From a virus (taxonomy: Duplodnaviria; Caudoviricetes): 63,053 nucleotides of DNA. Shown in pieces: positions 3,334-61,692 of this stretch (its first letter is position 1; each line of letters opens with the position of its first letter). The notes under the pieces are model-generated. The model was not told where the DNA came from, searched no databases, and was given only the letters and a program-made list of their open reading frames with translations. The stretch lies in IMG/VR virus record IMGVR_UViG_3300044707_000482, positions 1 to 63,053 of that record. One strand, 5' to 3'. The translations under genes and the position numbers were made by a program.

Positions 3334-3855
3334 ATGCACCTCAGCCCCGAGCAGCAGCGTCTGGCAGAGCAAGCCATGGGCATTGTCCCAAAGGCGCTGG
3401 CAGCGTTTCGCTACCGATACCCATCTCTTCGCAAGCAGTACGCCCAGATCGACGCCCAGAGCGTGGCCTACCTAGCAATTTGCCGGGCTTCGGTAACGTA
3501 CGACGCCGCGAAGTCGCAGGTTACGACCTATTTCACCACTGCCATTCGCAACGCGATGCTCAAGGAGATCGACCGGAATCGCCGGGCGCGGTACGACTCT
3601 CCTGATCGGGTTCCGATGGAGATAGCGGAGGCCCTGGCGGTAGCGCCGAACAAGATCTCGGGCAGGCTCCAGGCGGCTGTTGCTCGCCTTCCTCCTAGGG
3701 CCAGGCGGCTGATTCACCTGCGATTCTTTCGCGGGCTAAGCCTCAGGGAGATAGGCGAGCAAGCAGGGCGTGATCCTAGGACAGTGAGGCGGCGGCTCGA
3801 CGACGCCTTGGAGCTTCTGCGAACTCTTTTGCAAAGCGAGCCTTTGCTGCCCTGA
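3334..3855 (+). CDS. Phage-encoded sigma-70 family RNA polymerase sigma factor
   Basis: Region 2-like AYLAICRASVTYD...TTYFTTAIRNAM and region 4 LPPRARRLIHLRFFRGLSLREIG...TVRRRL. Confidence 0.85.
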   Translation: MHLSPEQQRLAEQAMGIVPKALAAFRYRYPSLRKQYAQIDAQSVAYLAICRASVTYDAAKSQVTTYFTTAIRNAMLKEIDRNRRARYDSPDRVPMEIAEALAVAPNKISGRLQAAVARLPPRARRLIHLRFFRGLSLREIGEQAGRDPRTVRRRLDDALELLRTLLQSEPLLP

Positions 3856-4522
3856 GTGCCCGAGTGATGCTGTTGATGTTCCAGCGGTAGCCGTTGGGCC
3901 TGCGCCACTTGTACACGTGGTGCGTGATGGCCTCCAGGCTGTAGCCATCACTGCGGAGAGACAGCATCTCGAGAACCTGCCGACGTTCCTCTTCGTCGGG
4001 CAGGTAGTAGGAGTCCTTGCCCTTGCCGAGCTTCTTCCAGCCGATGGGGGCGTGCTTATTGTGGGGCTTGCCAGCCTTCCGCTTGGCTTGCAGGCTGTCT
4101 CGCGTCCGCTCTCGGATGAACTCCAGTTCCAGTTCGGCAAAGGCCGTGAGGATCGTGAACACACACCGGCCGATGGGCGTGCTGGTGTCGAGGCCCATGT
4201 CGAGGGAGTTGAACGAGACGTCCTTGGCTTGGAGCAGCCGCATGGTCTGGGCTGCGTCCACGACGGAGCGGAAGGCCCGGTCGAGTTTGGCCCAGACGAT
4301 CTTGTCGCCGGGCTGGGCGAGTGCCCAGAGCTTGCGGCCCTCCTCGCGTTCGAACATGGGGCTGGAGCCGCTGGTGGCTGAGTCGTAGAGCCAGCCGCCA
4401 AAGGTGTAGCCCTCCGGCTGGAGGACTCGCTGCACGTACTCCTCACACTTGGCCCGTTGGTTGGCTTCGGTCAGGGTCTGTCGGCCGGTTGAGGCCCGGC
4501 CATAGGCGTAAACGATGGGCAT
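3776..4522 (-). CDS. Serine recombinase (resolvase/invertase family)
   Basis: YAYGRAST catalytic motif, SGS...R, KLDRAFRS, AFAELELEFIRERT; AAGGAG RBS before MPIV. Confidence 0.9.
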   Translation of the reverse strand: MPIVYAYGRASTGRQTLTEANQRAKCEEYVQRVLQPEGYTFGGWLYDSATSGSSPMFEREEGRKLWALAQPGDKIVWAKLDRAFRSVVDAAQTMRLLQAKDVSFNSLDMGLDTSTPIGRCVFTILTAFAELELEFIRERTRDSLQAKRKAGKPHNKHAPIGWKKLGKGKDSYYLPDEEERRQVLEMLSLRSDGYSLEAITHHVYKWRRPNGYRWNINSITRALRAAKARFAKEFAEAPRRRRAAASLS

Positions 4523-5263: not shown

Positions 5264-6697
5264 TCACGCCTCCTCCCTTGCAATCGGCACGACACGTGCC
5301 CACTTGGGTATCGCCGCATGCCAGTGCGAGCCGACCCTGCCGGTGTAGGCCATCACCACTCGGGCGCGTGGCTTCCAGTCGGCAGTCCAGTAAGTCTCGG
5401 CATCGGTGACCATCACGATAGAGTCGGGCTTTTCCCGGGCCTCGATCTCCTTGAGCACGGACTGCATGTCCGTGCCGCCGCCGCCGTGCCAGTCGAACAG
5501 GCGGGTGGTAGCCACCCACTTGTTGCTCTGCACGGTGGTGTCAGCACAGTAGACCTTTACCCGGGACAGTTTCCGGAGCCCCTGAGCGATGACGGACAGG
5601 GCTCGGGCCTGGATGTCCGCTCGCATCATCGAACTGCTGGTGTCCACGACCACGACAGCGTGCGGCTGCACCGTGATGCGGCCGTGCAGCAGGGGCTGGT
5701 CGTCCCCTGGCGGCTGCTTGCGGGACCGCCGCCGGTGGGTGAAGTCACGCCCGCCGACCGGCGAGGCCACGCTGGTGCAGACGGCTGAACGCAGTTGGTC
5801 GAACGGGTCGGGCTGCGGGTTGAGCCGCTGCTTGATGGCCTGCTTGATTGCCCCAGGCACGGAACCAGGGTTGCTCTGCTCGGCCTGTGCAATGGCTGCG
5901 GCAGCATGGGCGGCCGCCATGTCGCAGCCGTAAGCGTCCCATGAGCCGTCGCTCTCTACCTCGTAGGGGCGTGGCTGGCCGTCAGCGCACGAGCCGCCCG
6001 TGCCCGGCGCACCGGGCTCCGTCGCGTCCTTGCCCTGCCCGTCCTCAGCCGAGCCCTCGCTGCCGCCAGCCGCATCCTCCTCGCCAGGGTCTTGGCTATC
6101 GTCGCCGTCTTGCCCGGCCCCATCGGAAGTATCGCTGCCGGATGGAGGCGAAGACCCCGCCCCATCGTCGCCAGAGTCGTCGTCATTGCCGTCCTCTCCT
6201 TGGTTGCTGGAACTGCTGCCGTCCTGGTCCTGGCCTCTGAGCTTCTCCGTGATGAGGCGGTAATACTCCTGCATCGAATGGTTGGGCGGGAAGTCCAGGG
6301 TGATGCCGAGCTTGGGAACCTTGGCCCCAAGATGCACGACCGCAGGCGGCCTGAGGTGTCGCATCATGGCGAGCGTCTGCTCGATCACCAGATCGGCGGC
6401 GATGTTGCAGATGTACCGCTCGGTCTCGGTCATGTGTTCGCCCAGCATCTCGACCGACCGCTTGTGGTGGTCGAAGATGAGGTGCAGCACTTCGTGGGTG
6501 ATGATGTACGCCGCCTGCCCGACGTCCGCTTTGGCGATGTACTCCGGGCTCCAGTAGAGGGTGCCTTGGGCATCGACCGCAGCGGTGCCGACTCTGGGTT
6601 CCTCCTGTTCTCGCAGGGCGTAGATGTACGAGGCGAGGTAGGGCACGTACTCGAAGGTATGTACCCGTGCCTTGCCCAACAGTTGTCGTGGTGTCAT
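5264..6697 (-). CDS. DUF2201-like metallopeptidase-VWA protein
   Basis: HExxH (THEVLH), NIAADLVI, acidic low-complexity linker, MIDAS-like VVDTSSSM, GGGGTD, VTDA. Confidence 0.85.
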   Translation of the reverse strand: MTPRQLLGKARVHTFEYVPYLASYIYALREQEEPRVGTAAVDAQGTLYWSPEYIAKADVGQAAYIITHEVLHLIFDHHKRSVEMLGEHMTETERYICNIAADLVIEQTLAMMRHLRPPAVVHLGAKVPKLGITLDFPPNHSMQEYYRLITEKLRGQDQDGSSSSNQGEDGNDDDSGDDGAGSSPPSGSDTSDGAGQDGDDSQDPGEEDAAGGSEGSAEDGQGKDATEPGAPGTGGSCADGQPRPYEVESDGSWDAYGCDMAAAHAAAAIAQAEQSNPGSVPGAIKQAIKQRLNPQPDPFDQLRSAVCTSVASPVGGRDFTHRRRSRKQPPGDDQPLLHGRITVQPHAVVVVDTSSSMMRADIQARALSVIAQGLRKLSRVKVYCADTTVQSNKWVATTRLFDWHGGGGTDMQSVLKEIEAREKPDSIVMVTDAETYWTADWKPRARVVMAYTGRVGSHWHAAIPKWARVVPIAREEA

Positions 6698-7282: not shown

Positions 7283-8386
7283 TCACTGCTGAACCAACGC
7301 CATCAACTTCGTCAGCACAGCCTTCGGCGGGCTCCAGCCATCGGGCCGCACGCCGCCATTGCTGACGGGATTCCAGAGCGACTTGAACTGCATGAGGAAG
7401 GACTCGATCTCATGCCCGCCGACCTCGATGAACGCAGCGGCAGCGTTGAGCCACCGCTCGGGTGAGGTGTTGTCCCGCAGCCCCTTCACCAGCCCGGTGA
7501 GCAGGCAGATGTTGGCGTCGGGCCGGTTCTCGTAGGTGTAGGTCTCGTCACCCTCGAGGATGGACTCTGGATTGATGAGGTCGAGCCGGTGCCAGTACTG
7601 CAAGAACGATCCGCCCGCCGCCTCGCCCACGCAGCCGTGTGCCAGGGCTCGGTACATGGGATCCTTCCGCTCGTAACCGGCCGCGTCGGCCGCCGCAAAG
7701 CAGCGAACGAGGTACGTCCAAGTGCGGGGATTGGGGAACGCCATCGTCTCGTCGTCGATGGGCAACTTCTCCCGGCAGTCGGGGGCTGAGCGGAGGAACG
7801 CCTCCACCACACTGCCGAACTGCGGGAGCATGTCCTCCCAGTGCGACGGCACGACCGGGAACTCGGGGGCCGTCCACTTGCAGCCCGCCCGCAGGCCGGT
7901 GAACCAATGCTCGTAGTCCACCTGCCATTCGTAGTGGAAGAACCGGGCCCGCATCGCCGGTGCCAGGGGCACGGCATTGGGGCACAGTTCGGGCGGGTTG
8001 CACGACCCGACGATGATCGTGCTGGCTGGCATCACGTAGTCACCGACCCGCCGCTCGGAGATCACCGAGAGCAGGCCAGCCTGCGTGGCAGACGGCACGT
8101 TGGTGACCTCATCCACGTGGACGAGAGCCTTGCCGTCCATGGTCTTCTGCACCCACGAGGTGGGCATCATGTTGACGACGCCCGCCTTGTGGTTGGGGAT
8201 GGGGTAGCCCGAGAAGTCTTCGGGCAGGTGGGTGGCGCCGAGCAGCGGCACGAACGTGCGGCCCAGGGCGGCGGCCAGTGCCTCCCAGGTGGAGGACTTG
8301 CCGACGCCGGTGCCGCCACGAACGAGGGTGGGGACGACCTGGGCGGCGAGCAACGCGGGGGCGTTGCCAAGAGTTGAGCGAGCCAT
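7283..8386 (-). CDS. MoxR-type AAA+ ATPase
   Basis: Walker A GGTGVGKS, Walker B VHVDE, sensor SCNP, arginine finger AMRARF, FPNPRTW. Confidence 0.9.
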   Translation of the reverse strand: MARSTLGNAPALLAAQVVPTLVRGGTGVGKSSTWEALAAALGRTFVPLLGATHLPEDFSGYPIPNHKAGVVNMMPTSWVQKTMDGKALVHVDEVTNVPSATQAGLLSVISERRVGDYVMPASTIIVGSCNPPELCPNAVPLAPAMRARFFHYEWQVDYEHWFTGLRAGCKWTAPEFPVVPSHWEDMLPQFGSVVEAFLRSAPDCREKLPIDDETMAFPNPRTWTYLVRCFAAADAAGYERKDPMYRALAHGCVGEAAGGSFLQYWHRLDLINPESILEGDETYTYENRPDANICLLTGLVKGLRDNTSPERWLNAAAAFIEVGGHEIESFLMQFKSLWNPVSNGGVRPDGWSPPKAVLTKLMALVQQ

Positions 8387-8400
8387 GAGAACCTCCGGGT

Positions 8401-8436
8401 GAAAGAAGGGGGCTGGGGCAACGTGCCGCCAGCCCC
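8401..8436 (-). terminator. Intrinsic-terminator-like hairpin plus U-rich tract
   Basis: GGGGCTGG...CCAGCCCC followed by CTTCTTTC on the minus strand. Confidence 0.55.
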
Positions 8437-8473
8437 GTGAAACCAGACTCCGCAGCGGGAAAACAGGGGCGAT

Positions 8474-8920
8474 TCACACCCAGGTGGTGCGGGCCTCGCG
8501 GGTACGAATCCTGTGGCCGTCGAACTCATGACGCCACTTCTCGCCCTCCTCCCCCTGCCACTCGATGAACGATCCGTTGGTGACGAACGGGGCGAGGGCC
8601 GTGAGGAAGTACTCTTGGTCGCCGGTCTTGCTGTCATAGGACAGCGAGAGGATGTCCCCTGCCGGGCTTACCTCACAGTCGAAGCCGACCTCCGTCAGGA
8701 CTGCGACCAGATCCTTGCACTTCTCTGGGTAGTTGGGATCCATCCAACTGAACCACCTCTTGAGGCAGACGCTCGGCCCTCCGTCCGGCGGCGGTCCGTA
8801 CGATCCGCCGCCCTTGATCGAGTCGTTGCTGTTGAGGTCGCACAGCGCCTTGTACGCAGCCTCCTGCTTGTCCTTCGGTACGAACACGTTGCTGTTGGTG
8901 ATGCGAACGTAGTATCCCAT
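8474..8920 (-). CDS. Hypothetical phage protein
   Basis: 148-aa ORF with AAGGAG RBS; WFSWM...YDSKTGDQ...IEWQGEEGEKWR. Confidence 0.8.
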   Translation of the reverse strand: MGYYVRITNSNVFVPKDKQEAAYKALCDLNSNDSIKGGGSYGPPPDGGPSVCLKRWFSWMDPNYPEKCKDLVAVLTEVGFDCEVSPAGDILSLSYDSKTGDQEYFLTALAPFVTNGSFIEWQGEEGEKWRHEFDGHRIRTREARTTWV

Positions 8921-8947
8921 CGCTTGAAACTCCTTGGGTGGTGTCGG

Positions 8948-9817
8948 TCAGACAGATGTAGCGAGCAGACGGTTGACGGCAACCGCCGCCTTGGTCTGCT
9001 CGATGGCGTCGGTGAGGTCAGTGATCGGCCGCCCGAACAGCGACTCGTACTGCTGCACCTTGGCCAGGAACTTGTTGGCTCGGTCGAGCCGGACGTTGAT
9101 GCTGCGGTCGGTCATGCCACCGTGCGCCTCGTTGACGTCTTGCATGATGGCTGACAGGCCGATGGTCACCTCGTCTCGCAGCAACTCCATCACGTGAGCC
9201 ACCGTGTCGGGGTCGGAGCCGATCTCGAACTGCGTGACCGTGAACTTGGGGCCGTCTGTGCCACGCACATGCTTGGCGAACGCACGATACTGCTCCAGGA
9301 ACCGGCCGTCGAGGAACCACGCCCCGCCATCGTCCTTGAGCGAGACCGCACCCCACGACCGCAGCCCCTTGACCAGCACCTGCGAGATGACAGGGCCGGG
9401 TAGGTAGAGCCGCATGAGATCGACCTGTTGGGTGACGGCCTCATGCAGGGCATGCGATTGCACCTCGAAGTTCTCGTCCAGGATGTTGACCCGCCACTGC
9501 GTGTCAATGCTGGCAGAGAACAGGAAGCGGTAGTCGTTGCGGGCAGTGCTGGGCACAACACGCACGCACTCAAAGGCATTGGGTTCGTCCAGTTGCCGCA
9601 CGGTGATGGGCTGCTTGCGCTTCCTGCCATACAGGCGAGTGCCCTCCTCCAGCATGGCCGACCGCAGGGTTGTGGTCACGGCAGGAACGGGCGGCACGAA
9701 CCGCTCGATGCCAGCCAGTGAGGCCGCATCGTAGACCGCGTGCCGCAGTTGCCTGCGGGTAGAGAGCAGGCAGATACCACCGAGACCGGCACCGATCGTG
9801 ATGTTGTCGCGAGTCAT
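8948..9817 (-). CDS. Hypothetical protein, possibly DUF3150/DUF6744-like (families often found beside AAA-VWA pairs)
   Basis: MTRDNIT start with AGGAG RBS; GGAWF motif and helical C-terminus. Family call is tentative. Confidence 0.65.
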   Translation of the reverse strand: MTRDNITIGAGLGGICLLSTRRQLRHAVYDAASLAGIERFVPPVPAVTTTLRSAMLEEGTRLYGRKRKQPITVRQLDEPNAFECVRVVPSTARNDYRFLFSASIDTQWRVNILDENFEVQSHALHEAVTQQVDLMRLYLPGPVISQVLVKGLRSWGAVSLKDDGGAWFLDGRFLEQYRAFAKHVRGTDGPKFTVTQFEIGSDPDTVAHVMELLRDEVTIGLSAIMQDVNEAHGGMTDRSINVRLDRANKFLAKVQQYESLFGRPITDLTDAIEQTKAAVAVNRLLATSV

Positions 9818-9827
9818 GTGTGTACTC

Positions 9828-10028
9828 CTAGTGGGGAATGATGTCCTTGGCCGCACGAATGAACCGGCGTTCCAGCACGACGTACCGTGCTGCAACCTCC
9901 GGCTCATCGCAGTCCTCGCTGTCGGCGGCACTCTCAGCGAGGGAGTGGATGATGAGTTCGATCTCGTCTGGCCGCAGCGAGAACTGCACCTTGGGATACG
10001 TGGTCTCATCCCGAGCAATAGTGTACAT
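9828..10028 (-). CDS. Hypothetical protein
   Basis: 66-aa ORF within the operon. Confidence 0.6.
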   Translation of the reverse strand: MYTIARDETTYPKVQFSLRPDEIELIIHSLAESAADSEDCDEPEVAARYVVLERRFIRAAKDIIPH

Positions 10029-10030
10029 GA

Positions 10031-10198
10031 TTACACCCTTTCAGCAATGGGCTCGAGCGTGCCGTGCCCGCCCTCCCAGTCGGCGGTGGACGGCAAGGCG
10101 TGCCCCGTGTAGATGACCACCTCGTTGTCCGGCCCCTCGTCGAACACGGCCTGCGGACAGAGGATGAGAATGCGGTCGATCAGTTCCTTGAGCGTCAT
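10031..10198 (-). CDS. Hypothetical protein (55 aa, MTLKELIDRILILCPQ...)
   Basis: Translated by hand; AAGGAG RBS. Confidence 0.6.
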   Translation of the reverse strand: MTLKELIDRILILCPQAVFDEGPDNEVVIYTGHALPSTADWEGGHGTLEPIAERV

Positions 10199-10210
10199 GC
10201 AAGACTCCTT

Positions 10211-10444
10211 TCAGAGGTAGGCGCGCCAGTCGAATGACAAAGCACGGGATCCCTTGGGCGATACGATTCCCTTCTTCCATAGCGACCGCACCAGCACGGT
10301 CACGTAGCCAGCACTGGCCCAGCCAAAGTGCTCGGCAATCTCACGGTACGAGGGCTGGAAGCCGTTCCGATCTACGGATCGGGCGACCAGACGGAGCAGC
10401 CGCTGCTCGGTAGCAGTCGGTGGCTTGCGTTGCTTGGTTTGCAC
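10211..10444 (-). CDS. LexA-like winged-helix DNA-binding protein (N-terminal domain only)
   Basis: GFQPSYREIAEHFGWASAGYV...LWKKGIV; GTG start with AAGGAG RBS; no peptidase domain. Confidence 0.8.
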   Translation of the reverse strand: MQTKQRKPPTATEQRLLRLVARSVDRNGFQPSYREIAEHFGWASAGYVTVLVRSLWKKGIVSPKGSRALSFDWRAYL

Positions 10445-10457
10445 GGCGATTCTCCTT

Positions 10458-10796
10458 TCAAAACAACCGCCAGCAGTACGACTGCACGTACGCCAGCAGT
10501 TCCGCATGCTCACTGATCGGGCATGCCTCGATGGCTTTGATGACGCGGTCGCAAGAGGCACTCAACTGGCTGGCGGCAGCACGGGAGCCGTCCATGCTGC
10601 TGTACAACTCCCACTCCGCCACGCCCTGCGGAGCGAGTGGTCGCAGACCTCTGGCCGCACGGTAGATGCGGGTCTGGAAGATACCGTCCGGCTCGGTGTC
10701 CATTGCACCGAAGGAACGCAAGTGAGACTGCGTCACTTCGAACTGGCGGATCGCTTCGCGAATGGCGTCAACGTGGGGCGTGGTGGTAGTGGACAT
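10458..10796 (-). CDS. Hypothetical protein
   Basis: MSTTTTPH start with AAGGAG RBS. Confidence 0.7.
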   Translation of the reverse strand: MSTTTTPHVDAIREAIRQFEVTQSHLRSFGAMDTEPDGIFQTRIYRAARGLRPLAPQGVAEWELYSSMDGSRAAASQLSASCDRVIKAIEACPISEHAELLAYVQSYCWRLF

Positions 10797-10798
10797 GC

Positions 10799-11050
10799 TC
10801 AACTCCTTGTTGCTTGGGTGATGCTGTGGCACCGCTCGTCCGTGATGAACGCGGTCCCGCCGGACAGCGTGACGGTGCCCTTACCGGCCATGACTACATG
10901 CGGCTGCGACTTCCGCTCCCGTGTTCGCACGGGCACATGGCATTCGATGTGTCGCACGGTGTGGCAGCAGCCCTGACTGTGGACAGTCATGACTGGATGC
11001 CCCGCCTGCTTGGACGCAGGCTTGTTGTAGTGAAACCAAAACGCTGCCAT
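10799..11050 (-). CDS. Hypothetical protein
   Basis: 83-aa ORF with AGGAGG RBS; FWFHYNKPAS...VMTVH. Confidence 0.65.
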   Translation of the reverse strand: MAAFWFHYNKPASKQAGHPVMTVHSQGCCHTVRHIECHVPVRTRERKSQPHVVMAGKGTVTLSGGTAFITDERCHSITQATRS

Positions 11051-11223
11051 CGTCTCCCTCCTTGCGTCAGCGTGACGCGCGTACGAGTTCCAGAATCAGT
11101 CGAACGATCAGCACAACCAGTTCCATCTGGTCAGGATTCATGTCATGCCTCCTTGCATGGGTGGTGGGACAGTGGGAACTTCCCACTGAACAGACTCCGC
11201 AGCGGGAAAACGCCGGGAAAACG

Positions 11224-11949
11224 TCAGGCCAGGGCCGGGAGGGCCACCGAGAAGTCGTGCCCCGCCGCCGGTGCAGCCGCCTGCTTGCGGGCTGGCTCGG
11301 CAGGGCGGGTGCGGCTCTTGCGGGCGGGCTTGTCGGCGGGCTCTGGCTTCGGAGCCAGGGATCCTGGCCGGGCGGGGTACACGTGCGAGGTGACGCCGTC
11401 GTCGGCGGCCAGCGGCATGATGGCGAACCGTGCCACGTGCCCGTCCTCTCCCTGCGTTGCGGCGTACACGCAGGACGCTGCGTCCTTGACGAACAGGACA
11501 ATGCCCTTGCCCTTGGCTGTGTCGTCGTTCATGGCGTGCGACAGGCTGCACAGTTTGCCGAGCAGGGCTGCGTCCAGTTTGACGGAGGTGTAGCCATCCG
11601 GCTCGTCGTGAATCCGCATCACGCCCTCGCAGTTCGGGAACCTGCCGCTGGTGTTGATGGCGACGGCTCCCTTCGCCCCGCCCCGCAGTTCATCCCCGTC
11701 GAAGCGGACGCCGAGCGGATGGGCAAACGCCTTGACGGGCGGGGCTGCAAGATCCTTAGCGTGTGCGAGGGCATCCACCTCGATGCCGTCCTCGTCGTGC
11801 CAGTGGACGGTCGCCAGGATGCGGCCGTCGGTGGCGGCCATGCTTGCGGACTGGCCGTCGCTCTTGCACTGGATGCTGCCCAGTGCGTAGCCCGATGACT
11901 CGCCGTCGCAGATCCGGGCGAGTTGCTTGACAAACACAGGAAGTTTCAT
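11224..11949 (-). CDS. DNA polymerase III beta-clamp-like (DnaN-like) protein, shortened
   Basis: YALGSI...MAATDGRILA, GRFPN, AIMPL resemble the beta-clamp domain II/III motifs. Confidence 0.6.
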   Translation of the reverse strand: MKLPVFVKQLARICDGESSGYALGSIQCKSDGQSASMAATDGRILATVHWHDEDGIEVDALAHAKDLAAPPVKAFAHPLGVRFDGDELRGGAKGAVAINTSGRFPNCEGVMRIHDEPDGYTSVKLDAALLGKLCSLSHAMNDDTAKGKGIVLFVKDAASCVYAATQGEDGHVARFAIMPLAADDGVTSHVYPARPGSLAPKPEPADKPARKSRTRPAEPARKQAAAPAAGHDFSVALPALA

Positions 11950-11965
11950 GGCGTTCTCCTTGGGT

Positions 11966-12006
11966 GAAAGAAAGCGGGGCCAGTGACCCAGTGTCACTGG
12001 CCCCGC
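11966..12006 (-). terminator. Intrinsic-terminator-like 14-bp perfect hairpin plus TTTCTTTC
   Basis: GCGGGGCCAGTGAC/GTCACTGGCCCCGC. Confidence 0.7.
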
Positions 12007-12030
12007 AGAACCAGACTCCGCAGCGGGCAA

Positions 12031-12993
12031 TCACATGGCGTCGTGCAACGCCTCGATGCCGAAGTGGCCGAGCAACTCAAACACTTCCGTCAGGCACTGC
12101 TCGGTCAGCCCGTACATCCGCAGTTCCTGCCATCGAATGTCGGTGTACTGCTGCTCGTACTCGTCGGCCTCGTCCATCGTCCGCTTGTCGCCCTCGTAGG
12201 CGAGGTCGCCCGAGTACGGGTCGCGAATGAGCGTGCCCTCCTCGTCGATCGTCGTGACCCCTGCCTGCCGCTCGGCCAGCAGGTCGCCTGCGTCGGCGTC
12301 GAGATCGAACTCGATGGTCTTGGTGTCCATGACGGGCTCCTCTGCCTTGTCCTCGACGGGCAGGTAGCGAGCGCCGCTGGCACCGAGATAGCCGATCGGA
12401 TTGCTCGCCTTGCTGCCCGACCGACCGTAGTCGTACCACCGTGCATAGCGGGAGGACTCGTAGTCGGTGTTGCTGTACCAGTGGCCGTCGTTCGTCCAGT
12501 GGCCGTCTTCCTCGTTCCAGATGGCGTACTCGCCGTCCGCACGCAGGAAGCACAACTTGTTGCCGCGATGGGCTTGCTCCTGCGTGTAGATCATCTCCGG
12601 CCGGGTGAAGAAGTCCGGGTCATGCTTGTGCATGGGCTTGAGAACCAGCTCGTTGAAGTGCCACGTGTCCGAGCGGTCGGAGTGGACGTTGCACTTGATG
12701 GAAATGATGCCGTTGTGGATGACGGCAAGATCACGGGACACAAGGAACGGGTGGCAGTTGGCCACCGTGCGGGAGCCGTGCGTGGCCCAGCGGAAGTGAA
12801 TCACCGCTTGGCACTGGGCGTAGGGCTCGAGGGCGTGGCGGAACTCATCGAACTTGCCGACGCCGTGCTTGACAACGAGTTTGCCGTCTTGCACGGCGGC
12901 GAAGCCCCACGAATGGTCGTTGCTGTCGAAGCCGTTCTCGTAGGACTTCCAATCGACGGGCGTCTCGGCGGGCTTGTAGATTGCGAGGCACAT
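12031..12993 (-). CDS. Class II (Ntn) glutamine amidotransferase with acidic C-terminal tail
   Basis: N-terminal MC, HFRWATHG, NCHPF, HNG, SDT. Confidence 0.9.
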   Translation of the reverse strand: MCLAIYKPAETPVDWKSYENGFDSNDHSWGFAAVQDGKLVVKHGVGKFDEFRHALEPYAQCQAVIHFRWATHGSRTVANCHPFLVSRDLAVIHNGIISIKCNVHSDRSDTWHFNELVLKPMHKHDPDFFTRPEMIYTQEQAHRGNKLCFLRADGEYAIWNEEDGHWTNDGHWYSNTDYESSRYARWYDYGRSGSKASNPIGYLGASGARYLPVEDKAEEPVMDTKTIEFDLDADAGDLLAERQAGVTTIDEEGTLIRDPYSGDLAYEGDKRTMDEADEYEQQYTDIRWQELRMYGLTEQCLTEVFELLGHFGIEALHDAM

Positions 12994-13043
12994 GGGCGAG
13001 TCTCCTTGGGTGATGATGGTTGGATGAGCGAATCGGAAGGGAG

Positions 13044-14312
13044 TCAGGCAGACAAAGTCTCGGGGATCAGGGGGGTCAACTTAGGGAGGGGCCCGGCAAC
13101 CGAGTGGTAGAAGTCCGCGTACGCCGACCGATGGGCGCGGAACCACGCGTCCAGTTCGCGGTACTCGCGGCGAGCGTTGGTCCTGCCGAGCCAGATCAGG
13201 AAGTTCTGCCAGTTGAGTTCCTTCCGCTGGGCGGTTGACTGGACGCAGAAGTCACGGACTGCGAGGCAGTAGCACAGGTTCTTGAGGAGCGTGGGCAACT
13301 GGCAGGACGGACGGAAGATGCGGAACTCGACCGTCTCATCCTTGACGTTGAGGGCGGAATACTTCCGCCCGTCGTACGCCTTATTGGGCAGGCCGTTGCT
13401 CACGAACCTGCGATGCTCGAAGAACTCCGCGTACGAGGTCACGCGACCGGCGACGTCAACGTGGAACGCAGTGTTGCCGGGATCATGGATGAAGCACAGC
13501 ATCTTGCCGAGCGTCAGGTTCGACAGGCTCTTGCGGTTGAGGTGAACGTGCATGCCGCACTTCGTCTTGTTCCACGCCGACACCGCACCCTTGCCGAGCC
13601 GCCCGCCAGGGAACGCCTTCTCCAGCACCTTGCGATGCTCGTCGAGCGTCATCGGCACGGTCACGAACTCCACGCCGGTCTCGTCCGGCAGAGATCCGTC
13701 CTGCTTGGCAATCGCACCGCGACCCGTGCGGGTCTTGTTCACGGTCGCCTTGTAAGCCGCATCGAAGGGGCCAAGCAGTGCTGCGGCCCCTTCGTTTGCG
13801 TTCGTGGCCGAGATGCACTCGAACTCGAACGCAACGGTGGGCGATGTCCGCTTGTAGGACAGGTTCCGCCAGCCCGTTTCTTCCAGGACGCACGCATCGC
13901 TGTCGAGCAGTTCGTCGTGGCCGCCAGTGCAGCGGTCGCAGAAATCGTCATCGCAGACCCCGTTGTCGCAGCGGGTATTGCCGTGCCGATCCTCGTTGTC
14001 CTCGTCGTACCCGTCGGTGTCGTACCCATCCCGGTCGAAGCCGTTGCAGTCGTACCCTTCGCGGTCATAGCCAGCGTCGTCGAATGGGCTGCCGTCCGCC
14101 GTGAACCCGCGACGATTGAACACCGTGCCCGTGAGGCGGTGGTGCCCGTCGCGGTGGAAGTCTTCGGCGTTGTAGCCCTCAGCATTGAATCCTTCGTGGT
14201 CGTGGCCATCGACGTCGAACCCGTTGCGGTCGTACCCCTCCGCATCGAAGCCCAGGGCGTTGAACCCCTCCGCATCGAACCCGTTCTCGTCGTACTGAAC
14301 TTCCTCGTTCAT
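13044..14312 (-). CDS. Amidoligase (COOH-NH2 ligase family) with N-terminal G(F/Y)Dxx repeats
   Basis: FEFE, DGSL, EFVT, CGMHVHL, KYSALN, TVEFRIF motifs; GGAGG RBS before MNEEV. Confidence 0.85.
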   Translation of the reverse strand: MNEEVQYDENGFDAEGFNALGFDAEGYDRNGFDVDGHDHEGFNAEGYNAEDFHRDGHHRLTGTVFNRRGFTADGSPFDDAGYDREGYDCNGFDRDGYDTDGYDEDNEDRHGNTRCDNGVCDDDFCDRCTGGHDELLDSDACVLEETGWRNLSYKRTSPTVAFEFECISATNANEGAAALLGPFDAAYKATVNKTRTGRGAIAKQDGSLPDETGVEFVTVPMTLDEHRKVLEKAFPGGRLGKGAVSAWNKTKCGMHVHLNRKSLSNLTLGKMLCFIHDPGNTAFHVDVAGRVTSYAEFFEHRRFVSNGLPNKAYDGRKYSALNVKDETVEFRIFRPSCQLPTLLKNLCYCLAVRDFCVQSTAQRKELNWQNFLIWLGRTNARREYRELDAWFRAHRSAYADFYHSVAGPLPKLTPLIPETLSA

Positions 14313-14327
14313 GGAATCCTCCACAGG

Positions 14328-14359
14328 AAAAAAGAAAGGCCGCCCCACAAGGGACGGCC
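14328..14359 (-). terminator. Intrinsic-terminator-like hairpin plus U tract
   Basis: GGCCGTCCC-TTGT-GGGGCGGCC-TTTCTTTTTT. Confidence 0.75.
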
Positions 14360-14390
14360 TGCACCGAACTCCAGACTCCGCAGCGGCGAA

Positions 14391-14519
14391 CTACCGCTGC
14401 TTCTTCTTGACCCGCTTCAACTTCTTGCGGGCCTCACGACACGTGCGTTCCTCCTTGACGCGCTCCGCCTTGACGAGACGCCACCATGCGTCGTTCCACG
14501 CCTGCTGCTTGGTTCCCAC
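14391..14519 (-). CDS. Small basic protein (42 aa)
   Basis: Translated by hand from a GTG coupled to the upstream stop; ends 4 nt before the repeat motif. Confidence 0.5.
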   Translation of the reverse strand: MGTKQQAWNDAWWRLVKAERVKEERTCREARKKLKRVKKKQR

Positions 14520-14959
14520 TAGGCGGAACCCAGTGCGTGAAGAAACACGCCAGCGTCAGCGGCCAGAGCCTGTGCCTTCATTGCATCCATGCTGGCGTTC
14601 AGGCCACGCCTGCCATCAAAGATCGCATCGCCAAGCAGGGAGCGGCTCTGCTCCAGATACTCGATGAGATCCGCCTTGCGTATGACACGGCACACCATCT
14701 CGCAGCCGTCCCACTCGCCCTCCACCGTGCGCCCGGATACCGAGCCAACCCACTGGCTTTCGGTTCTGTTGGTGCGGGGATTGTGCAGATACCACACGCT
14801 GGGGCTGCTTGCGGACTTGGTGACAATCGTTACGTCACCAAGTCCGCGACAAGAGCGCGTCCGCAGGGCACTGATCGCGGCCTCGCGTGTCGTGAACACG
14901 CCGAACACGTTCTCGCCTGCGTCACTCGACTCCATCGCAATGAACACGGTGTTCGTCAT
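14519..14959 (-). CDS. Hypothetical protein
   Basis: 146-aa ORF; VFGVFTTREAA motif; GGAGG RBS. Confidence 0.7.
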   Translation of the reverse strand: MTNTVFIAMESSDAGENVFGVFTTREAAISALRTRSCRGLGDVTIVTKSASSPSVWYLHNPRTNRTESQWVGSVSGRTVEGEWDGCEMVCRVIRKADLIEYLEQSRSLLGDAIFDGRRGLNASMDAMKAQALAADAGVFLHALGSA

Positions 14960-14962
14960 GGT

Positions 14963-15136
14963 TCAGCCCTCCTTCCTTGCAATGAGGGCGGCAATCTCGG
15001 CCCGCTCCTTGCCCGTGAGCGTGCGGAAATCCTTGAGGAACTCCTTGCGGGAGCGAGCCCCGAGTGCCTTGCTCGCTTCCCGGAGCGAGACGAAGTGCAT
15101 GAGGCGGGGATTGGGGACGTTGCTGTGAGTGCGCAT
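14963..15136 (-). CDS. Hypothetical protein
   Basis: MRTHSNV start with AGGAG RBS. Confidence 0.6.
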   Translation of the reverse strand: MRTHSNVPNPRLMHFVSLREASKALGARSRKEFLKDFRTLTGKERAEIAALIARKEG

Positions 15137-15216
15137 GGCATCTCTCCTGTAGGGAACCATCGAACAAGGCGACCGGAACACCCGGCCTGCCAGAAACCAG
15201 ACTCCGCAGCGGCAAA

Positions 15217-15447
15217 TCAGCGGAGGTTCCGCTTGGCCGCAGGCTGCGGGGTCAACACCGCATCGAGCCAGCGGTCGATGTCGAGGTTCTCTGCCACCTC
15301 GACCGCACGGGTGAGCGTGCGATACGGCCCCATCACGGGCGTCTGCTCGCTGATGAGATCAAGCAGATAGAACCCGTCCTTGCACTCGAACACTTCCGCC
15401 TGAGCGATACCGCCATCACGAACCACGAACGTCTTGTCACCGGCCAT
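15217..15447 (-). CDS. Hypothetical protein (repeat-bounded cassette)
   Basis: MAGDKTF start with GGAGG RBS. Confidence 0.7.
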   Translation of the reverse strand: MAGDKTFVVRDGGIAQAEVFECKDGFYLLDLISEQTPVMGPYRTLTRAVEVAENLDIDRWLDAVLTPQPAAKRNLR

Positions 15448-15559
15448 GGGAAAACCCTCCAAACGTGGAAACGAACACGCCCACCGCGAAGTGCGATGGG
15501 CGAACCTGCGAGTGCAGGATTGGGGGCAGTGGCAGTCCTGCCAGACTCCGCAGCGGGAA

Positions 15560-15967
15560 TCACTCGGCCTGGAGTTGGACATGGGCGAGCATGTCCTTGG
15601 CCGCCTCGCTGCGGATGGCGACGAACAGGGCACGGGCGAGATCCGCACGCATCGAGCCGCCGTACTCGCCGTTCACCCACACGGGAACCCACGTGCGGCC
15701 CTTCTTGTCCTTCTGGCCCGCACCCATCGCGATCCCGCCCGCGAACTCCTCCTTGGCGACCTTGGGCTTGTCAGCCTTCGCGGGAGCGGCCTTCGTGGCC
15801 TTAGCCTTCGCGGGAGCGGTCGCCTTCTGCGACTCACGCCACTTGGCCAGAGCCTCCGGGTTGCCCTTACGCTTGCCCTTCGGCTTCGCGGCAACCGCAG
15901 GGGCATCCTCGACACCAACCAGAGCCATCAGACCCTTGAGCAAAGCGTTCTTTTCGGCAGCAGTCAT
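15560..15967 (-). CDS. Hypothetical Lys/Ala-rich protein (repeat-bounded cassette)
   Basis: MTAAEKN start with GGAGG RBS; histone-H1-like PAKA tracts. Confidence 0.7.
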   Translation of the reverse strand: MTAAEKNALLKGLMALVGVEDAPAVAAKPKGKRKGNPEALAKWRESQKATAPAKAKATKAAPAKADKPKVAKEEFAGGIAMGAGQKDKKGRTWVPVWVNGEYGGSMRADLARALFVAIRSEAAKDMLAHVQLQAE

Positions 15968-16088
15968 GGGATCATCCTCCAACAAGGAACCATCGAACCG
16001 TCCGTGCAACATGCAACGGACACGTGAGGGAGCCGGAGTCGAACCGGCTCTTCGACCATCCCCCACCAACCAGACTCCGCAGCGGGAA

Positions 16089-16292
16089 TCAACGGTCGAT
16101 CACGACACGGCGAGGCTCAGGCCGACGCTCCATCGGCACATAGCCTTCGGGCTGCTCGTCGGTCGTGATGAGGTTGAACACGCCCATCCACTCGCGTGTC
16201 GTGCCGCCGCCCAACGCAGGGTTCTTGCGGGCCACACGACGCTCGCGACGATTGTTCCGTCCGTCGCCTACGGTCACCGGCTTGCTATCCAT
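16089..16292 (-). CDS. Hypothetical protein (repeat-bounded cassette)
   Basis: MDSKPVT start preceded by GGAGGACGACCG. Confidence 0.65.
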   Translation of the reverse strand: MDSKPVTVGDGRNNRRERRVARKNPALGGGTTREWMGVFNLITTDEQPEGYVPMERRPEPRRVVIDR

Positions 16293-16372
16293 CGGTCGTC
16301 CTCCACACATCGAGACATCGAACACGGCAGCCGAACGTCGGCCACCGAAAACCAGACTCCGCAGCGGGCTTT

Positions 16373-16606
16373 TCAGCAGATGGGACGGGCAACGACACGC
16401 TGGGCGGCGAGATCCCATTCGTACCGGTACAGGTCGATCTGCTTGCCCTCGCGTGCCATGTCGCAGACACAGGCGAACACGGCACGCATCACGAAGCCGA
16501 AGCCGCGATAGATTGGCGTCCAGTCCATGTCGTCGATGTGATAGACAGCGATCTCGCCGGCGTTGACATTGCAGGAAATCGTGTAGCCGTTGATGACGAA
16601 GGTCAT
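16373..16606 (-). CDS. Hypothetical protein (first repeat-bounded cassette)
   Basis: 77-aa ORF preceded by GGAGGACGACCG. Confidence 0.7.
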   Translation of the reverse strand: MTFVINGYTISCNVNAGEIAVYHIDDMDWTPIYRGFGFVMRAVFACVCDMAREGKQIDLYRYEWDLAAQRVVARPIC

Positions 16607-16949
16607 CGGTCGTCCTCCATGTCGGTAACGTGACGGTCACTCGCCGTCGATCGTTCCGACACAAACCAGACTCCGCAGCGAACGGACAGCGGATAAAAGG
16701 CGGATCGCGGCCCGGGTTCACGCCCTTCCTCGTGACCGTGAAACGGAAGTCGTTTGCCGCCCTGTAGATAGAACGCGTTGGAGCCTTCGGCTCCCCATGC
16801 CCCCCCGTCGCGTCACGCCTAGAGTTACGTTCCCCTCCTGGATTTTTTCGCCGTTTCATTGGCCCCCTCCTGCATAGGGGGTTGCTGGACTCCCGTCCAC
16901 CGCTACACTGGGCGCCTGTCCAGATGCCTCTGAGTGAAAGGAGATCCCA

Positions 16950-17324
16950 GTGATTCAAGGAACGGTGACGGGCAACGTCGGCAAGGATCCCGTGCTGCGT
17001 ACCACGCAGTCGGGCAAGCAGGTGGCGTCGTTTTCGGTGGCTTCGACCGCCAAGAAGGACGGGCCGACGACCTGGGTGGATGTGGTCTGCTTTGACGAGC
17101 AGGCCGATGTGGTGTCGCAGCGGATCAAGAAGGGCGACCGGGTCGTAGTGACGGGCCGGTTTGGCCTGGAGACCTACGAGAAGCGTGACGGCTCCCAGGG
17201 GACTTCCCTGCGGTTGCTGGCCGACGAGGTGGGTCACAGTCTCCGGTGGCCCAAGCGGGAGACTGTTGGGGCGGCGGTGGCCGACGATGGGGAAGTCGGC
17301 GGCGGCGACGAAGTTCCCTTCTGA
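16950..17324 (+). CDS. ssb: Single-stranded DNA-binding protein
   Basis: GNVGKDP, FSVA, W.DVVCF, KGDRVVVTG; acidic DEVPF tail. Confidence 0.95.
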   Translation: MIQGTVTGNVGKDPVLRTTQSGKQVASFSVASTAKKDGPTTWVDVVCFDEQADVVSQRIKKGDRVVVTGRFGLETYEKRDGSQGTSLRLLADEVGHSLRWPKRETVGAAVADDGEVGGGDEVPF

Positions 17325-21808: not shown

Positions 21809-22345
21809 ATGAGTACGCTGACTGCTGATCCCGGATTCAGTCGCGGCCAGACGCTCGGCGTCACCGTGACGATGTACGAGGCCGAGAACGGTGACGGCTC
21901 GACCGTCATCGGCACCCGCAAGGTGTTCCGCGACGAGAACCCGACCACCGGTGCCCTTAACAGCAACCGGACCGTCGAGTGCATCGCCGTGAAGAACACC
22001 AGCGGCAGTGCCCTGCTTCCTGGTGCGGTCGCCAAGTTCAAGGATGCGGCGATCCTCTCGGAGGTGGACGGTCTGGCCACCACCTCGACTGCCCTCATGG
22101 GCGTCGTGGACGAGTACCTCCCGGCGGCGGGCGTGCCCAACAACGAGGTGTTCTGGCTCGTCGTGCGCGGCCCCTCGACGGTGACCAAGACGGCGACCAG
22201 CGTGGCGGCTGGTGCCTCCTACGGCCTGTCCGCTACGTCTGGTTCGGCTGCGGCTCAGTCCACCAACCCGCTGCTCGGCTACGCCATCGCTACGAGTGCC
22301 ACGGCCTCCGGGCGGATTCTGGTTCGCACGGCCGCTGGCTTCTGA
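21809..22345 (+). CDS. Capsid decoration/cement protein
   Basis: Follows the MCP; FWLVVRGP; terminator downstream. Confidence 0.65.
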   Translation: MSTLTADPGFSRGQTLGVTVTMYEAENGDGSTVIGTRKVFRDENPTTGALNSNRTVECIAVKNTSGSALLPGAVAKFKDAAILSEVDGLATTSTALMGVVDEYLPAAGVPNNEVFWLVVRGPSTVTKTATSVAAGASYGLSATSGSAAAQSTNPLLGYAIATSATASGRILVRTAAGF

Positions 22346-22370
22346 TTCGAGTCATCAACGTCGCGATGTT

Positions 22371-22405
22371 GGCCGCAGGAGGGACCGTTCCCCCCTGCGG
22401 CCTTT
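22371..22405 (+). terminator. Rho-independent terminator after the capsid genes
   Basis: GGCCGCAGG...CCTGCGGCC-TTT. Confidence 0.7.
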
Positions 22406-40121: not shown

Positions 40122-40394
40122 ATGGACGCTGGCGAACTGGACATTGAAGACCTTCCGCCGAAGGCTCTTCGGAAGTTGATCCGCAGCATGATGGCCAAGG
40201 TCGGCAAGCCTCGCGATGCGAAGTCCGACGAGGACGCCGACGAGGAGCGTGAGGCTCTCGCGGACCTCAAGGAAGAGACCAAAGGCAAGGCCCCAAAGAT
40301 CCCGGTGATCGAGGACGATCTCCCGCCCGAGCTTCGTGCTGACGAGGACGACGAGGACGAGACGCCCAAGAAGGCGAAGCGAAAGGGCAAGTAA
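40122..40394 (+). CDS. Small highly charged protein
   Basis: D/E/K-rich; AAGGAG RBS. Confidence 0.65.
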   Translation: MDAGELDIEDLPPKALRKLIRSMMAKVGKPRDAKSDEDADEEREALADLKEETKGKAPKIPVIEDDLPPELRADEDDEDETPKKAKRKGK

Positions 40395-55372: not shown

Positions 55373-55839
55373 AGGTAGATCTTGAGTGGTTCGAGGTCAG
55401 TCGGGCCGCACTGGTTGGCGTCTCTCGCAACGTCGAGGCGATGCGCAAGCAGTGTCAGAATCGCAGCACGGTGCCCGACGACTGGGGCATCCACATCCTT
55501 GGTGCGCTGGGCGAGTGCGCGTTCGCCAAGGCAACGAACAGGTACTGGAACGGCAGCGTCAACACCTTCAAGCGTGGCGGCGACGTTGGTCGCATCCAGG
55601 TTCGGACCCGAGCAAGGCACGACCACGATCTGATCGTGCGACCCCAGGACAAGAGTGAGGATGTCTTCGTCTTGGTGACGGGCGGCCCCAGCAGCTTTGA
55701 GATTCAAGGCTGGTGCGTAGGCGAAGAGGCCAAGCAGGATGCGTTCACTGCCAATCATGGCGGCTACGGAGAGGCGTACTTCGTGCCAGCCAAGTCCCTG
55801 CGGACCCCAGAGCAACTCGTAGTGGGAGGTGAGGAATGA
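55369..55839 (+). CDS. Hypothetical protein, possible nuclease fold
   Basis: GALGECAFAK...GDVG..QVRT...IQGW. Confidence 0.7.
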   Translation: MKVDLEWFEVSRAALVGVSRNVEAMRKQCQNRSTVPDDWGIHILGALGECAFAKATNRYWNGSVNTFKRGGDVGRIQVRTRARHDHDLIVRPQDKSEDVFVLVTGGPSSFEIQGWCVGEEAKQDAFTANHGGYGEAYFVPAKSLRTPEQLVVGGEE

Positions 55840-61276: not shown

Positions 61277-61290
61277 TAGGAGATATCGCA

Positions 61291-61596: not shown

Positions 61597-61692
61597 ACGC
61601 ACTAATCTTGCGACGGAACTATCAAGCGATCCTTGATGGTTGCCGACCAAACAGGCGTAGACTCGCTGGACGGCGGGCGTAGACTAGGCGGC

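Follow-up and report, generated by a model that had tools for sequence, protein, structure and literature searches.

A repeated 15-nucleotide signal and its companion stem-loops head the gene units of one arm of an uncultured lake-water phage

The control regions of phages harbour several kinds of short, repeated element. The nut sites of lambda-type antitermination consist of a boxA consensus together with a boxB hairpin of conserved sequence and are served by an N-like protein. Closer to the locus described here are the PeSLs of T4-like phages, in which a transcription signal and a G/C-rich stem-loop stand ahead of small genes of unknown function within a plastic, early-type region, and for which the comparison with integrons was drawn by the PeSL authors themselves (PMC2839356, PMC4122927). 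The holoenzyme containing gp36 of phage phiEco32 is described as recognising a single conserved element and starting transcription 6–8 bp downstream of it (PMC8948821). Stoperators of the L5 type are sites of 13–14 bp that occur 20–30 times per genome and are oriented with transcription (PMC6550527), and 18–30 dispersed repressor sites are given for phiC31 and L5 (PMC4557955). The window examined in the present work is the whole of IMG/VR virus record IMGVR_UViG_3300044707_000482 (Duplodnaviria; Caudoviricetes), a record of 63,053 nt with an estimated completeness of 99% and a G+C content of 63.9%, hereafter called W. Its leftward arm contains nine copies of a 15–16-nt signal, and these represent the constant part of a modular regulatory cassette that, over the first 8.3 kb of the arm, stands at the head of every expression unit.

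The signal, CCGCTGCGGAGTCTGG, is composed of a 15-nt core, CCGCTGCGGAGTCTG, with an optional sixteenth base, G. It is G+C-rich and asymmetric overall, yet contains a 9-bp dyad, CCGC-T-GCGG. A motif scan placed seven exact copies and two with a single mismatch between 8443 and 16681, every one of them on the minus strand, with starts at 8443, 11190, 12011, 14371, 15197, 15541, 16070, 16352 and 16666, exactly as listed in the initial annotation of this DNA. When three mismatches were permitted the scan gave 13 matches against 1.85 expected, a number reached in none of 100 shuffles, and the remaining matches (19929 and 48534 on the plus strand, 24506 and 44402 on the minus strand) all carry three mismatches. 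The confinement of the motif to the arm, also noted earlier, therefore holds for both strands at up to two mismatches. A pattern search of the whole record likewise found no forward and nine reverse occurrences, with none on either strand for a reversed-pattern control, and a repeat search inside the arm revealed no further repeated motif.

All nine copies are located in gene gaps in the same orientation as the flanking genes. Copy 1 (16666–16681, TCGCTGCGGAGTCTGG, one mismatch) heads the arm; it has no gene upstream on the minus strand and lies within a 343-nt region that is divergent from the SSB gene (16950–17324). The gap from the first copy to the start of this opposite-strand gene is some 270–370 nt in W and in two of its relatives, G003 and G005. 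Six copies closely follow a stop codon: copy 2 (16352–16367) is found 5 nt past the stop codon of 16373–16606, copies 3 (16070–16085) and 4 (15541–15556) are 3 nt past one, and copies 5 (15197–15212), 6 (14371–14386) and 7 (12011–12026) are 4 nt past one. The distance increases to 18 nt for copy 8 (11190–11205), whose last base is T, and to 15 nt for copy 9 (8443–8458), which is positioned upstream of a MoxR-like ATPase gene and is directly preceded by CCCCTGTTTTC. The first four genes of the arm (16373–16606, 16089–16292, 15560–15967 and 15217–15447) each have a copy on either side. Gene positions and contexts thus agree with what had been said of the intergenic placement, the 3–5-nt spacing and the bracketing of these four genes.

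Each unit is built in the order stop codon, signal, sequence-variable stem-loop, pyrimidine tract, ribosome-binding site (RBS) and start codon, and a stem-loop and an RBS follow each of the nine copies in W. All the stem-loops lie on the minus strand. That of unit 1 (16616–16665) is two-tiered and without a T tract, its 3' arm abutting the RBS of 16373–16606, and its structure is retained in relatives despite an altered sequence. Single stem-loops were found by folding in units 2 (16325–16347) and 5 (15168–15191), and unit 8 has one without a T tract (11170–11188). Two stem-loops are present in unit 4 (15478–15518), the second of which (15502–15478) is terminator-like. The 10-bp stem of unit 6 (14337–14360) is followed by TTCTTTTTTC, giving it the clear look of an intrinsic terminator, and it is kept ahead of an amidoligase-like gene in relatives. 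The 14-bp stem of unit 7 (11974–12006), followed by TTTCTTTCAC, is also terminator-like. In unit 9 (8409–8436) the stem is preserved by compensatory changes in the orthologous spacers of relatives. A terminator scan passed three of the nine (12006–11974, 14360–14337 and 15502–15478), and folding and scan together bear out the hairpins, RBSs and three terminator-like cases reported before.

Unit 3 has two stem-loops (15999–16050), the first of which (16030–16050) carries a loop resembling that of a tRNA T-arm, GGTTCGACTCC, inside a possible acceptor-like helix. ARAGORN recognised no tRNA in this structure and Rfam returned nothing. Indeed, an Rfam search of 8000–17200 gave nothing at E ≤ 1, and one of 600–2300 gave two chance-level matches only. 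Whole-unit folding z-scores ranged from −3.1 to +1.2. Pairing of the signal with the RBS region was also considered and proved uninformative, as pairing probabilities are uniformly high in G+C-rich RNA.

The same anatomy is evident across 165 unique instances from the close family of W. A stop-like triplet ends 0–6 nt upstream of the signal in 109 of the 165, the usual wording there being GCTGATTCC, and a median of 63 nt separates the signal from the start codon. The first copy is always found at the head of its arm. The spacer folds at −10 kcal/mol or below in 149 of 160 units, with a median of −23 compared with −15 after shuffling. The helix begins 0–13 nt past the 15-mer, most commonly at 6 nt, and at least five T residues occur within 8 nt after the stem in 34 of 149 hairpins. 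In 16 of 151 units the signal stands only 10–39 nt from the start codon, leaving no room for a hairpin. In orthologous spacers the stems are maintained through compensatory changes. The sense strand folds more stably than the antisense strand in 121 of 151 units (Wilcoxon p = 1.7e-16, a value that overstates independence because the instances are related) and 275 of 2664 stem pairs are G-U. This strand bias and the G-U pairs together indicate that the stem-loops act as RNA in the leftward transcripts. The arm gaps of W that lack the signal also lack any comparably stable hairpin. On the other arm, a terminator-like hairpin at 22370–22405 on the plus strand (GGCCGCAGGAGGG...CCCCCCTGCGGCC TTTCG), located after the virion-module gene 21809–22345, has no signal upstream, and hence hairpins there also occur signal-free.

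The exact 16-mer was found in 49 IMG/VR stretches. Twenty-five of these are fragments of ~60-kb phages with a G+C content of about 62–64% that hold at least three copies at up to two mismatches. Within each locus the copies reside on a single strand, save for one two-mismatch match in each of L049 and L052. Five complete relatives contain 8–14 co-oriented copies apiece, all within one stretch of 7–8.5 kb, against 0–1 for the reversed-pattern control, and outside these five arrays there are only three matches, each with two mismatches. Since five complete relatives carry such co-oriented and confined arrays, the signal is not a product of chance. Over 155 unique instances the positions of the motif hold 1.3–2.0 bits and the flanks mostly less than 0.7 bits. 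Moreover, the 15-mer is nearly invariant while the arm rarely reaches 80% nucleotide identity, and the block must therefore be under strong purifying selection. A GANTC methylation site within the signal was dropped as an explanation, as several copies in one relative read GGCG rather than GGAG.

No close relative of W was found among 50,697 deposited phage records, and the lineage is one of uncultured lake-water phages without cultured relatives in the phage collection searched. Among the matches listed for a scan of bacterial genomes there were only single ones and no multi-copy, prophage-like ones. Literature searches, which covered main texts, yielded no description of the signal, and the motif used as a search word returned unrelated papers only, on mammalian and enterovirus subjects for example.

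A more distant family, comprising G006–G008 and related fragments (loci L205, L204, L206, L208–L211 and L201), has an SSB that is 58% identical and a sigma factor that is 47–48% identical to those of W. Its leftward arm has no W-type copies at the equivalent positions. Instead it carries a different signal, CCCYTG(W)TTTCAGGGG-YY-GGCGA(G/T)T..., which comes after the stop codon and is followed by a hairpin, a T tract, an RBS and ATG. The part CCCYTGWTTTCAGGGG-YY-GGCGA(G/T)T includes a 14-bp perfect dyad. There are six copies in G006, five in G008 and two in the half-complete G007, with none in the controls. The right-hand part of this signal can be aligned with that of W (GCTGGCGAGTTCT against GCTGCGGAGTCT), and the CCCCTGTTTTC that precedes copy 9 of W equals the left part of the distant element. 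It follows that the two signals go back to one element and have diverged from each other, changing in step with the phages' own proteins. Strong T tracts follow about 15 of the 20 real distant-family units when the printed sequences are judged by eye, with only 10–25 nt then left before the RBS; a script counted 8 of 22, a figure that includes some misplaced helix ends and two false positives.

The region at the head of the arm holds a further conserved feature in the form of a single-copy 21-mer, AAAATCCAGGRGGGGWACGTA (16826–16846, minus strand), which has identical wording in both families even though their intergenic signals differ. It may be the primary promoter of the arm, an operator or other regulatory site of the arm, or an element of an origin.

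What, then, does the signal do? The reading that we favour, tentatively and with somewhat less than even confidence, is that it is a phage-specific promoter that consists of one contiguous element. This is the commonest explanation for such an arrangement, and it was absent from the four alternatives proposed initially, as was the phage's own sigma factor gene. That gene (3334–3855, plus strand) is convergent with the end of the leftward arm and encodes an extracytoplasmic function (ECF)-like sigma factor of 173 aa, with matches to Sigma70_r4 (9.3e-11) and Sigma70_r2 (2.4e-5). It is kept in all five close relatives (65–75% identity) and in all three distant ones (47–48%), and at the sensitivity used its homologues were found only in metagenomic relatives of the lineage. 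The sigma factor is a candidate reader of the signal.

In such a scheme GAGTCT would serve as the −10-like part with a conserved extension upstream, and would be read by host RNA polymerase reprogrammed by the phage sigma factor. The 5' end of each mRNA would in that case be placed at the foot of the stem-loop, and the stem-loop would stabilise this end and, where a T tract is present, attenuate the transcript. A cascade may be envisaged in which host-type promoters give rise to the sigma factor and the sigma factor in turn activates the leftward arm. The identical 15-mers that flank the units double as joints at which cassettes are gained, lost or swapped between related phages.

Candidates for the first step of such a cascade can be seen in the GGCGTAGACT elements, of which five copies are present on the plus strand (721–752, 909–918 and 1534–1565) and are repeated at 61654–62498. 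Four of them form two tandem pairs with a spacing of 22 nt (TAGACT-16 nt-TAGACT) and the fifth stands alone. They precede the open reading frames (ORFs) at 948 and 1590, and the operon whose last gene encodes the sigma factor lies downstream of them. They look like host-type promoters.

A number of features argue for the signal as a promoter. The block is contiguous, invariant and co-oriented and is found ahead of every unit, the arm head included, as is typical of phage-specific promoters. GAGTCT shares its A and last T with a −10 hexamer, and T followed by G is favoured at +20/+21, which equates to a start 7–8 nt after the −10 hexamer, at the usual foot of the hairpin. The GGCGTAGACT elements share the skeleton GCG-NAGNCT with the signal, their TAGACT lying 27–29 nt before the ATG of the ORFs at 948 and 1590, and this geometry is matched by the hairpin-less units, in some of which the signal is no more than ~20–30 nt ahead of the start codon. 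The sigma factor needs cognate sites, and it is conserved while the signal differs between the two families, which fits with co-divergence of a reader and its signal. Between 3000 and 19000 one sigma-70-like site was found, on the other strand, against 2.1 expected; with no such excess and no other repeat, there appear to be no alternative promoters inside the arm. A precedent for promoters with one element read by a phage sigma factor is provided by phiEco32 (PMC8948821). ECF sigma-factor promoters are bipartite, with −35 and −10 elements separated by a spacer of 16–17 bp. In the phages studied here an ECF-like sigma gene is present in W and in all eight relatives examined and the signal has a −10-like part containing GTC, its GTCTG being, we presume, akin to the −10 of promoters of the RpoE/AlgU type.

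Several observations pull the other way. Despite the presence of region 4 in the sigma factor, a conserved −35 is lacking at the expected distance: positions −12 to −6 hold less than 0.7 bit, and apart from a faint preference for C/G at −11 to −9 the upstream sequence shows just the stop-codon context, with TGATT and GCTGA as enriched words. The invariant CCGCTGCG would fall in the spacer, which is not normally read by sigma factors, and the signal is G+C-rich. The likeness of the GGCGTAGACT elements to the signal was noticed after the fact and this class of element occurs in W only, not in G001 or G003–G005, and the instances of the signal come from related phages and so are not independent. 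Terminator-like hairpins follow the signal in 3 of 9 units in W, 34 of 149 in the close family and, by eye, about 15 of 20 in the distant family. A transcript started just upstream would run into these terminators and could go on only with the help of some additional read-through mechanism, of which none was identified; it is hard to see why a plain promoter should have terminators placed right behind it, above all in the distant family. A bipartite ECF site was looked for and rejected. A search for GGAAC-N15-17-CG was noisy, and the GGAAC...CGTC found past copy 1 belongs to the hairpin and is unconserved, the relatives having GGCAC, GGAGC or GGATC.

A phage RNA polymerase, which would account for a contiguous and invariant promoter, was looked for as well, and no RNA polymerase family was detected in Pfam and PHROGs scans of the large ORFs. 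Two large proteins were considered individually as polymerases and rejected. The first, of 1245 aa (40394–44131, plus strand), is an Ala/Asp/Pro-rich low-complexity protein of the virion module and is probably an internal or ejection protein; it contains NPDLDGD and DIDGD motifs, which are not polymerase evidence, and has no matches. The second, of 1171 aa (45537–49052, plus strand), is mostly helical, with more than 100 metagenomic homologues and a confident AlphaFold model (pLDDT 81, pTM 0.82) that has no fold match in the PDB (best E 0.62, TM <0.1). One of its homologues is labelled as originating from a Synechococcus metagenome-assembled genome, which is a weak hint of the host only. The 989-aa and 653-aa ORFs have no sequence match in the PDB.

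The terminators that trouble the promoter reading are the very features that an antitermination element would account for. In this alternative a phage or host factor would be recruited by the element, acting either as nascent RNA or as non-template DNA within the elongation complex, ahead of each terminator or stem-loop, and polymerase that had initiated at an arm-head promoter would thereby be able to pass into the next gene; in a variant, a Q-like factor is loaded at a promoter with its terminator right behind it. The close coupling of signal and stem-loop (0–13 nt), the stability of the folds, their selection as sense RNA and the absence of stable hairpins from signal-free gaps are all as expected, and the genes downstream of the terminator-like hairpins do need read-through. 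The first copy would belong to the leader, with the 21-mer, conserved in both families, ahead of it as the possible real promoter. The signal of the distant family consists of a small palindrome or hairpin (CCCTGATTTCAGGG) and a linear conserved part, which reads GTTCTTTG in one subgroup, and we take the two to be comparable to boxB and boxA, respectively. Antitermination had been among the explanations offered at the outset, along with stoperator-like and processing functions; all three remain compatible with the data, and antitermination gains from the strong terminators of the distant family.

Nevertheless, known processive systems use one or two sites per operon and not 8–14. In 16 of 151 units there is a signal and no hairpin, and around three quarters of the close-family hairpins are devoid of a T tract, which would make the signal superfluous there. 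The W-type signal is unlike boxA and does not itself form a conserved hairpin, wording similar to boxA is missing from G008 and G007, and no covariation that would back the palindrome as an RNA helix was apparent by eye. No conserved N- or Q-like gene was found: the sole arginine-rich candidate, the 67-aa ORF 16089–16292 (minus strand) with the N-terminal stretch GRNNRRERRVARK (RRERR), was rejected as an N-like protein because it is an orphan with no homologues in the fetched relatives. Overall, antitermination appears rather unlikely, if still the main competitor. A specific form of it, to which we attach a slightly lower and still appreciable likelihood, would have each unit act as a self-contained and conditional switch based on local, non-processive antitermination, the polymerase being re-licensed by a phage factor at each gene boundary and each gene being a portable and individually gated cassette, exchangeable among phages through the 15-mer.

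A different prospect is that a phage DNA-binding protein occupies the asymmetric sites in each spacer and so blocks or tunes transcription of the arm in the manner of an operator or stoperator, as the repressors of L5 and phiC31 do at many dispersed sites. The sites are indeed co-oriented, intergenic and asymmetric, with one in the control region at the arm head, and the 14-bp perfect dyad of the distant signal would suit dimeric helix-turn-helix (HTH) proteins. The arm also encodes small helical or HTH-like proteins. One of these is a three-helix protein of 57 aa (14963–15136, minus strand), which was found in 21 loci and is among the most widespread arm genes of the close family; it can be put forward, speculatively, as a signal-binding protein. 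Its model, a three-helix bundle, gave no significant match in the PDB and no DNA-binding fold (best Foldseek E 3.3). Another is the LexA-like ORF 10211–10561, whose LexA-type winged helix was confirmed by a match to LexA_DNA_bind (E 6.9e-9). The suggestion that this LexA-like protein binds the signal has lost ground: gene-order strings show that W lacks an HTH gene carried by most relatives at the corresponding place, and the motif is invariant regardless, the LexA-like gene itself not having been searched for in relatives. Furthermore, all the sites fall within 8.3 kb of a single arm, with none at up to two mismatches in the other ~47 kb, whereas stoperators cover both arms. Signs of lysogeny go no further than a 248-aa resolvase, the scan of bacterial genomes having listed no multi-copy, prophage-like matches, and the tight coupling to RNA hairpins would be left unexplained. 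An operator role accordingly seems quite improbable.

The adjoining of a conserved stretch and a stable RNA hairpin in every spacer would also be in keeping with RNA processing, whereby a host or phage endoribonuclease cuts the polycistronic transcript at or beside the signal and so frees mRNAs that are protected by their stem-loops. Between the conserved part and the hairpin there is a relatively A/U-rich segment (GAGUCUGGUUU; in the distant family GAGUUCUUU or GAUUACUU), which presumably resembles the single-strand-specific sites of RNase E-type enzymes. A precedent of sorts exists in phage 7-11, where a 5' end upstream of the sigma gene was ascribed to processing or to stalling of reverse transcriptase at a hairpin (PMC8948821). 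Host RNases of this type have no need of 10–15 nucleotides that are invariant and G+C-rich, the arm yielded no candidate for a nuclease, and the leader copy before the first gene would have no obvious use. Processing or stability is therefore a very doubtful function.

The last of the original proposals saw in the copies the recombination sites of an integron-like cassette array, at which the resolvase-type serine recombinase encoded at the end of the arm (3776–4522; 248 aa; Resolvase match, E 3.9e-31), or another recombinase, would cross over. The recombinase is real, as had been stated, and its gene does end the arm; there is also a sub-threshold Phage_integrase match (E 0.006). Gene-order strings for 25 loci and W display a conserved backbone in the arm, in which signal-bracketed single-gene units occupy different slots among relatives (protein clusters 17, 26 and 37, and cluster 7 relative to 10/30), and a strain contig that is 99% identical to W has ~540 extra nt exactly at copy 4 (15541–15556), with the signal on both sides. 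Cassettes thus do differ at the motif, but order also changes at motif-free junctions: where the signal is present 297 of 438 locus pairs (68%) disagree in the gene that follows, and where it is absent 211 of 397 (53%), a comparison that rests on crude gene calls. A mosaic-joint test was set aside, as there were too few high-scoring segment pairs of at least 80% identity and at least 120 nt between W and the fetched relatives, with nine ends inside the arm.

The architecture of the element does not suit a recombinase. The sites of serine recombinases of the res/hix type are made of two inverted half-sites of ~12 bp around a central crossover. Here only 15 nt on the 5' side of the hairpin are conserved, with a 9-bp dyad and no paired 12-bp half-sites. 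The paralogous cassettes within a genome share 28–36% amino acid identity, making them old and giving no sign of recent hopping. DNA contigs from four runs contained no joint going back on itself, of the kind that a circle junction would give; most of the skips seen within contigs, having 21–41 matching letters on the short side at 85% likeness, were not counted. Since exchange also occurs without the signal, the paralogues are old and the architecture of a recombinase site is missing, exchange is best seen as a by-product of general recombination. Our analysis suggests that this happens at the identical 15-mers and is not the purpose of the element, as was proposed for the PeSLs (PMC2839356, PMC4122927), where general recombination has already been documented to bring about exchange between repeated regulatory motifs (PMC2839356). 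The integron-like array with its dedicated recombinase can hardly be credited any longer.

The remaining genes of the arm are mostly small and without a family match. Towards its end, the MoxR-like AAA ATPase gene (7283–8386, minus strand) is accompanied by a gene for a DUF2201 metallopeptidase/VWA protein (5264–6697, minus strand), a pairing of the kind seen in N4-like phages; tblastn detects the ATPase in 175 phage records, among which N4-like genomes of 70–78 kb are numerous. Between 12031 and 14312 on the minus strand there are neighbouring amidoligase-like (E 7.5e-4) and class-II glutamine amidotransferase-like (E 3.8e-3) genes, both below Pfam thresholds, which are neighbours in relatives too. 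W also has Erf-like and exonuclease genes. Elsewhere in the genome, a dNMP phosphatase-like gene (55836–56704, plus strand; PHROG E 1.3e-62) adjoins a gene with a dATP/dGTP diphosphohydrolase N-terminal domain (Pfam E 3e-19). The two may take part in nucleotide-pool editing or in DNA base modification, and no PurZ-like gene was found among the ORFs scanned. Tandem 48-nt repeats at 3–470 and 60482–61276 (plus strand) encode a repetitive protein, GDATFNGSAxNGGT. The two ends of the record (1–2120 and 60934–63053) are 91% identical, with 185 mismatches in 2120 nt; W is probably a circular or terminally redundant genome of ~60.9 kb that was assembled past its start across two strain variants, despite being designated as linear in IMG/VR.

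The value of these observations is that a precise and searchable regulatory signal, in two diverged versions, is now defined for an abundant lineage of uncultured lake phages. The linking of the signal with a phage sigma factor offers a concrete model of a temporal programme in phages known from metagenomes only. Should the promoter reading be correct, signal and sigma factor would form a compact orthogonal expression pair; should the signal be one for local read-through, it would represent an unusual gene-by-gene gating of expression. In either case, the units illustrate that the marking of exchangeable cassettes by repeated regulatory motifs extends beyond the T4-like phages.

How does the unit compare with the systems outlined at the beginning? 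With lambda-type antitermination (nut boxA/boxB; pR'-QBE-tR') it shares a cis element located shortly before a terminator. Lambdoid phages have one or two such sites per operon against the 8–14 seen here, the W-type element is without its own hairpin, the nine hairpins of W are variable in sequence, and wording like that of boxA appears only in one distant subgroup. Integron arrays have an IntI tyrosine integrase with attI/Pc, and their attC sites carry inverse core sites to either side of the hairpin; here there is no IntI-like gene beside the array and conservation is restricted to the 5' side of the hairpin, and in comparison with the crossover sites of serine recombinases there is the 9-bp dyad only, with unconserved flanks. 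The stoperators of Cluster A phages (PMC6550527) and the phiC31 sites (PMC4557955) are also asymmetric, oriented with transcription and situated in short spacers, with one in the control region; L5-type sites lack dyad symmetry, and the signal contains the 9-bp CCGC-T-GCGG. As described there, they number 20–30 genome-wide, belong to temperate phages and have an identified repressor, whereas here nine sites in 8.3 kb are coupled to stem-loops and no repressor was identified, no search for homology to the L5 repressor having been made.

The gp36 element of phiEco32, tAATGTAtA, is likewise a short contiguous repeat and is read by the host core enzyme with a small phage sigma factor. The account of it attributes the missing −35 to the lack of region 4 homology in gp36 (PMC8948821), whereas the sigma factor here has region 4. 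The gp36 promoters are also unrelated in sequence, and in the phages described here hairpins or terminators are found directly downstream.

The general design of the unit, a transcription signal with a G/C-rich stem-loop placed before small genes of unknown function in a plastic region, is shared with the PeSLs (PMC2839356, PMC4122927). As with those elements, a stable stem-loop forms part of the same composite (149 of 160 units, three of the nine in W being terminator-like). In PeSLs the stem-loop works as a terminator or attenuator, and insertions, deletions and replacements that distinguish close relatives are situated at the elements; the units here show one clean insertion of ~540 nt at a signal and cassettes in different slots, with a modest enrichment (68% against 53%). 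Going by the published descriptions, PeSLs carry a consensus sigma-70 promoter, whereas the signal here is a single 15-nt block with no sigma-70 consensus and no −35/−10 pair. The PeSL stem-loop acts on transcription arriving from upstream of the element, whereas here the conserved element precedes the stem-loop. Mini-circles were shown for PeSLs, and the phage here has a sigma factor of its own, unlike in the PeSL case. To regard the locus as an undescribed system, as was suggested initially, is thus too strong, given that PeSLs, stoperators and phage-sigma promoters share its general design. The unit departs from each known family in at least one defining respect, and its closest described analogues are the PeSLs.

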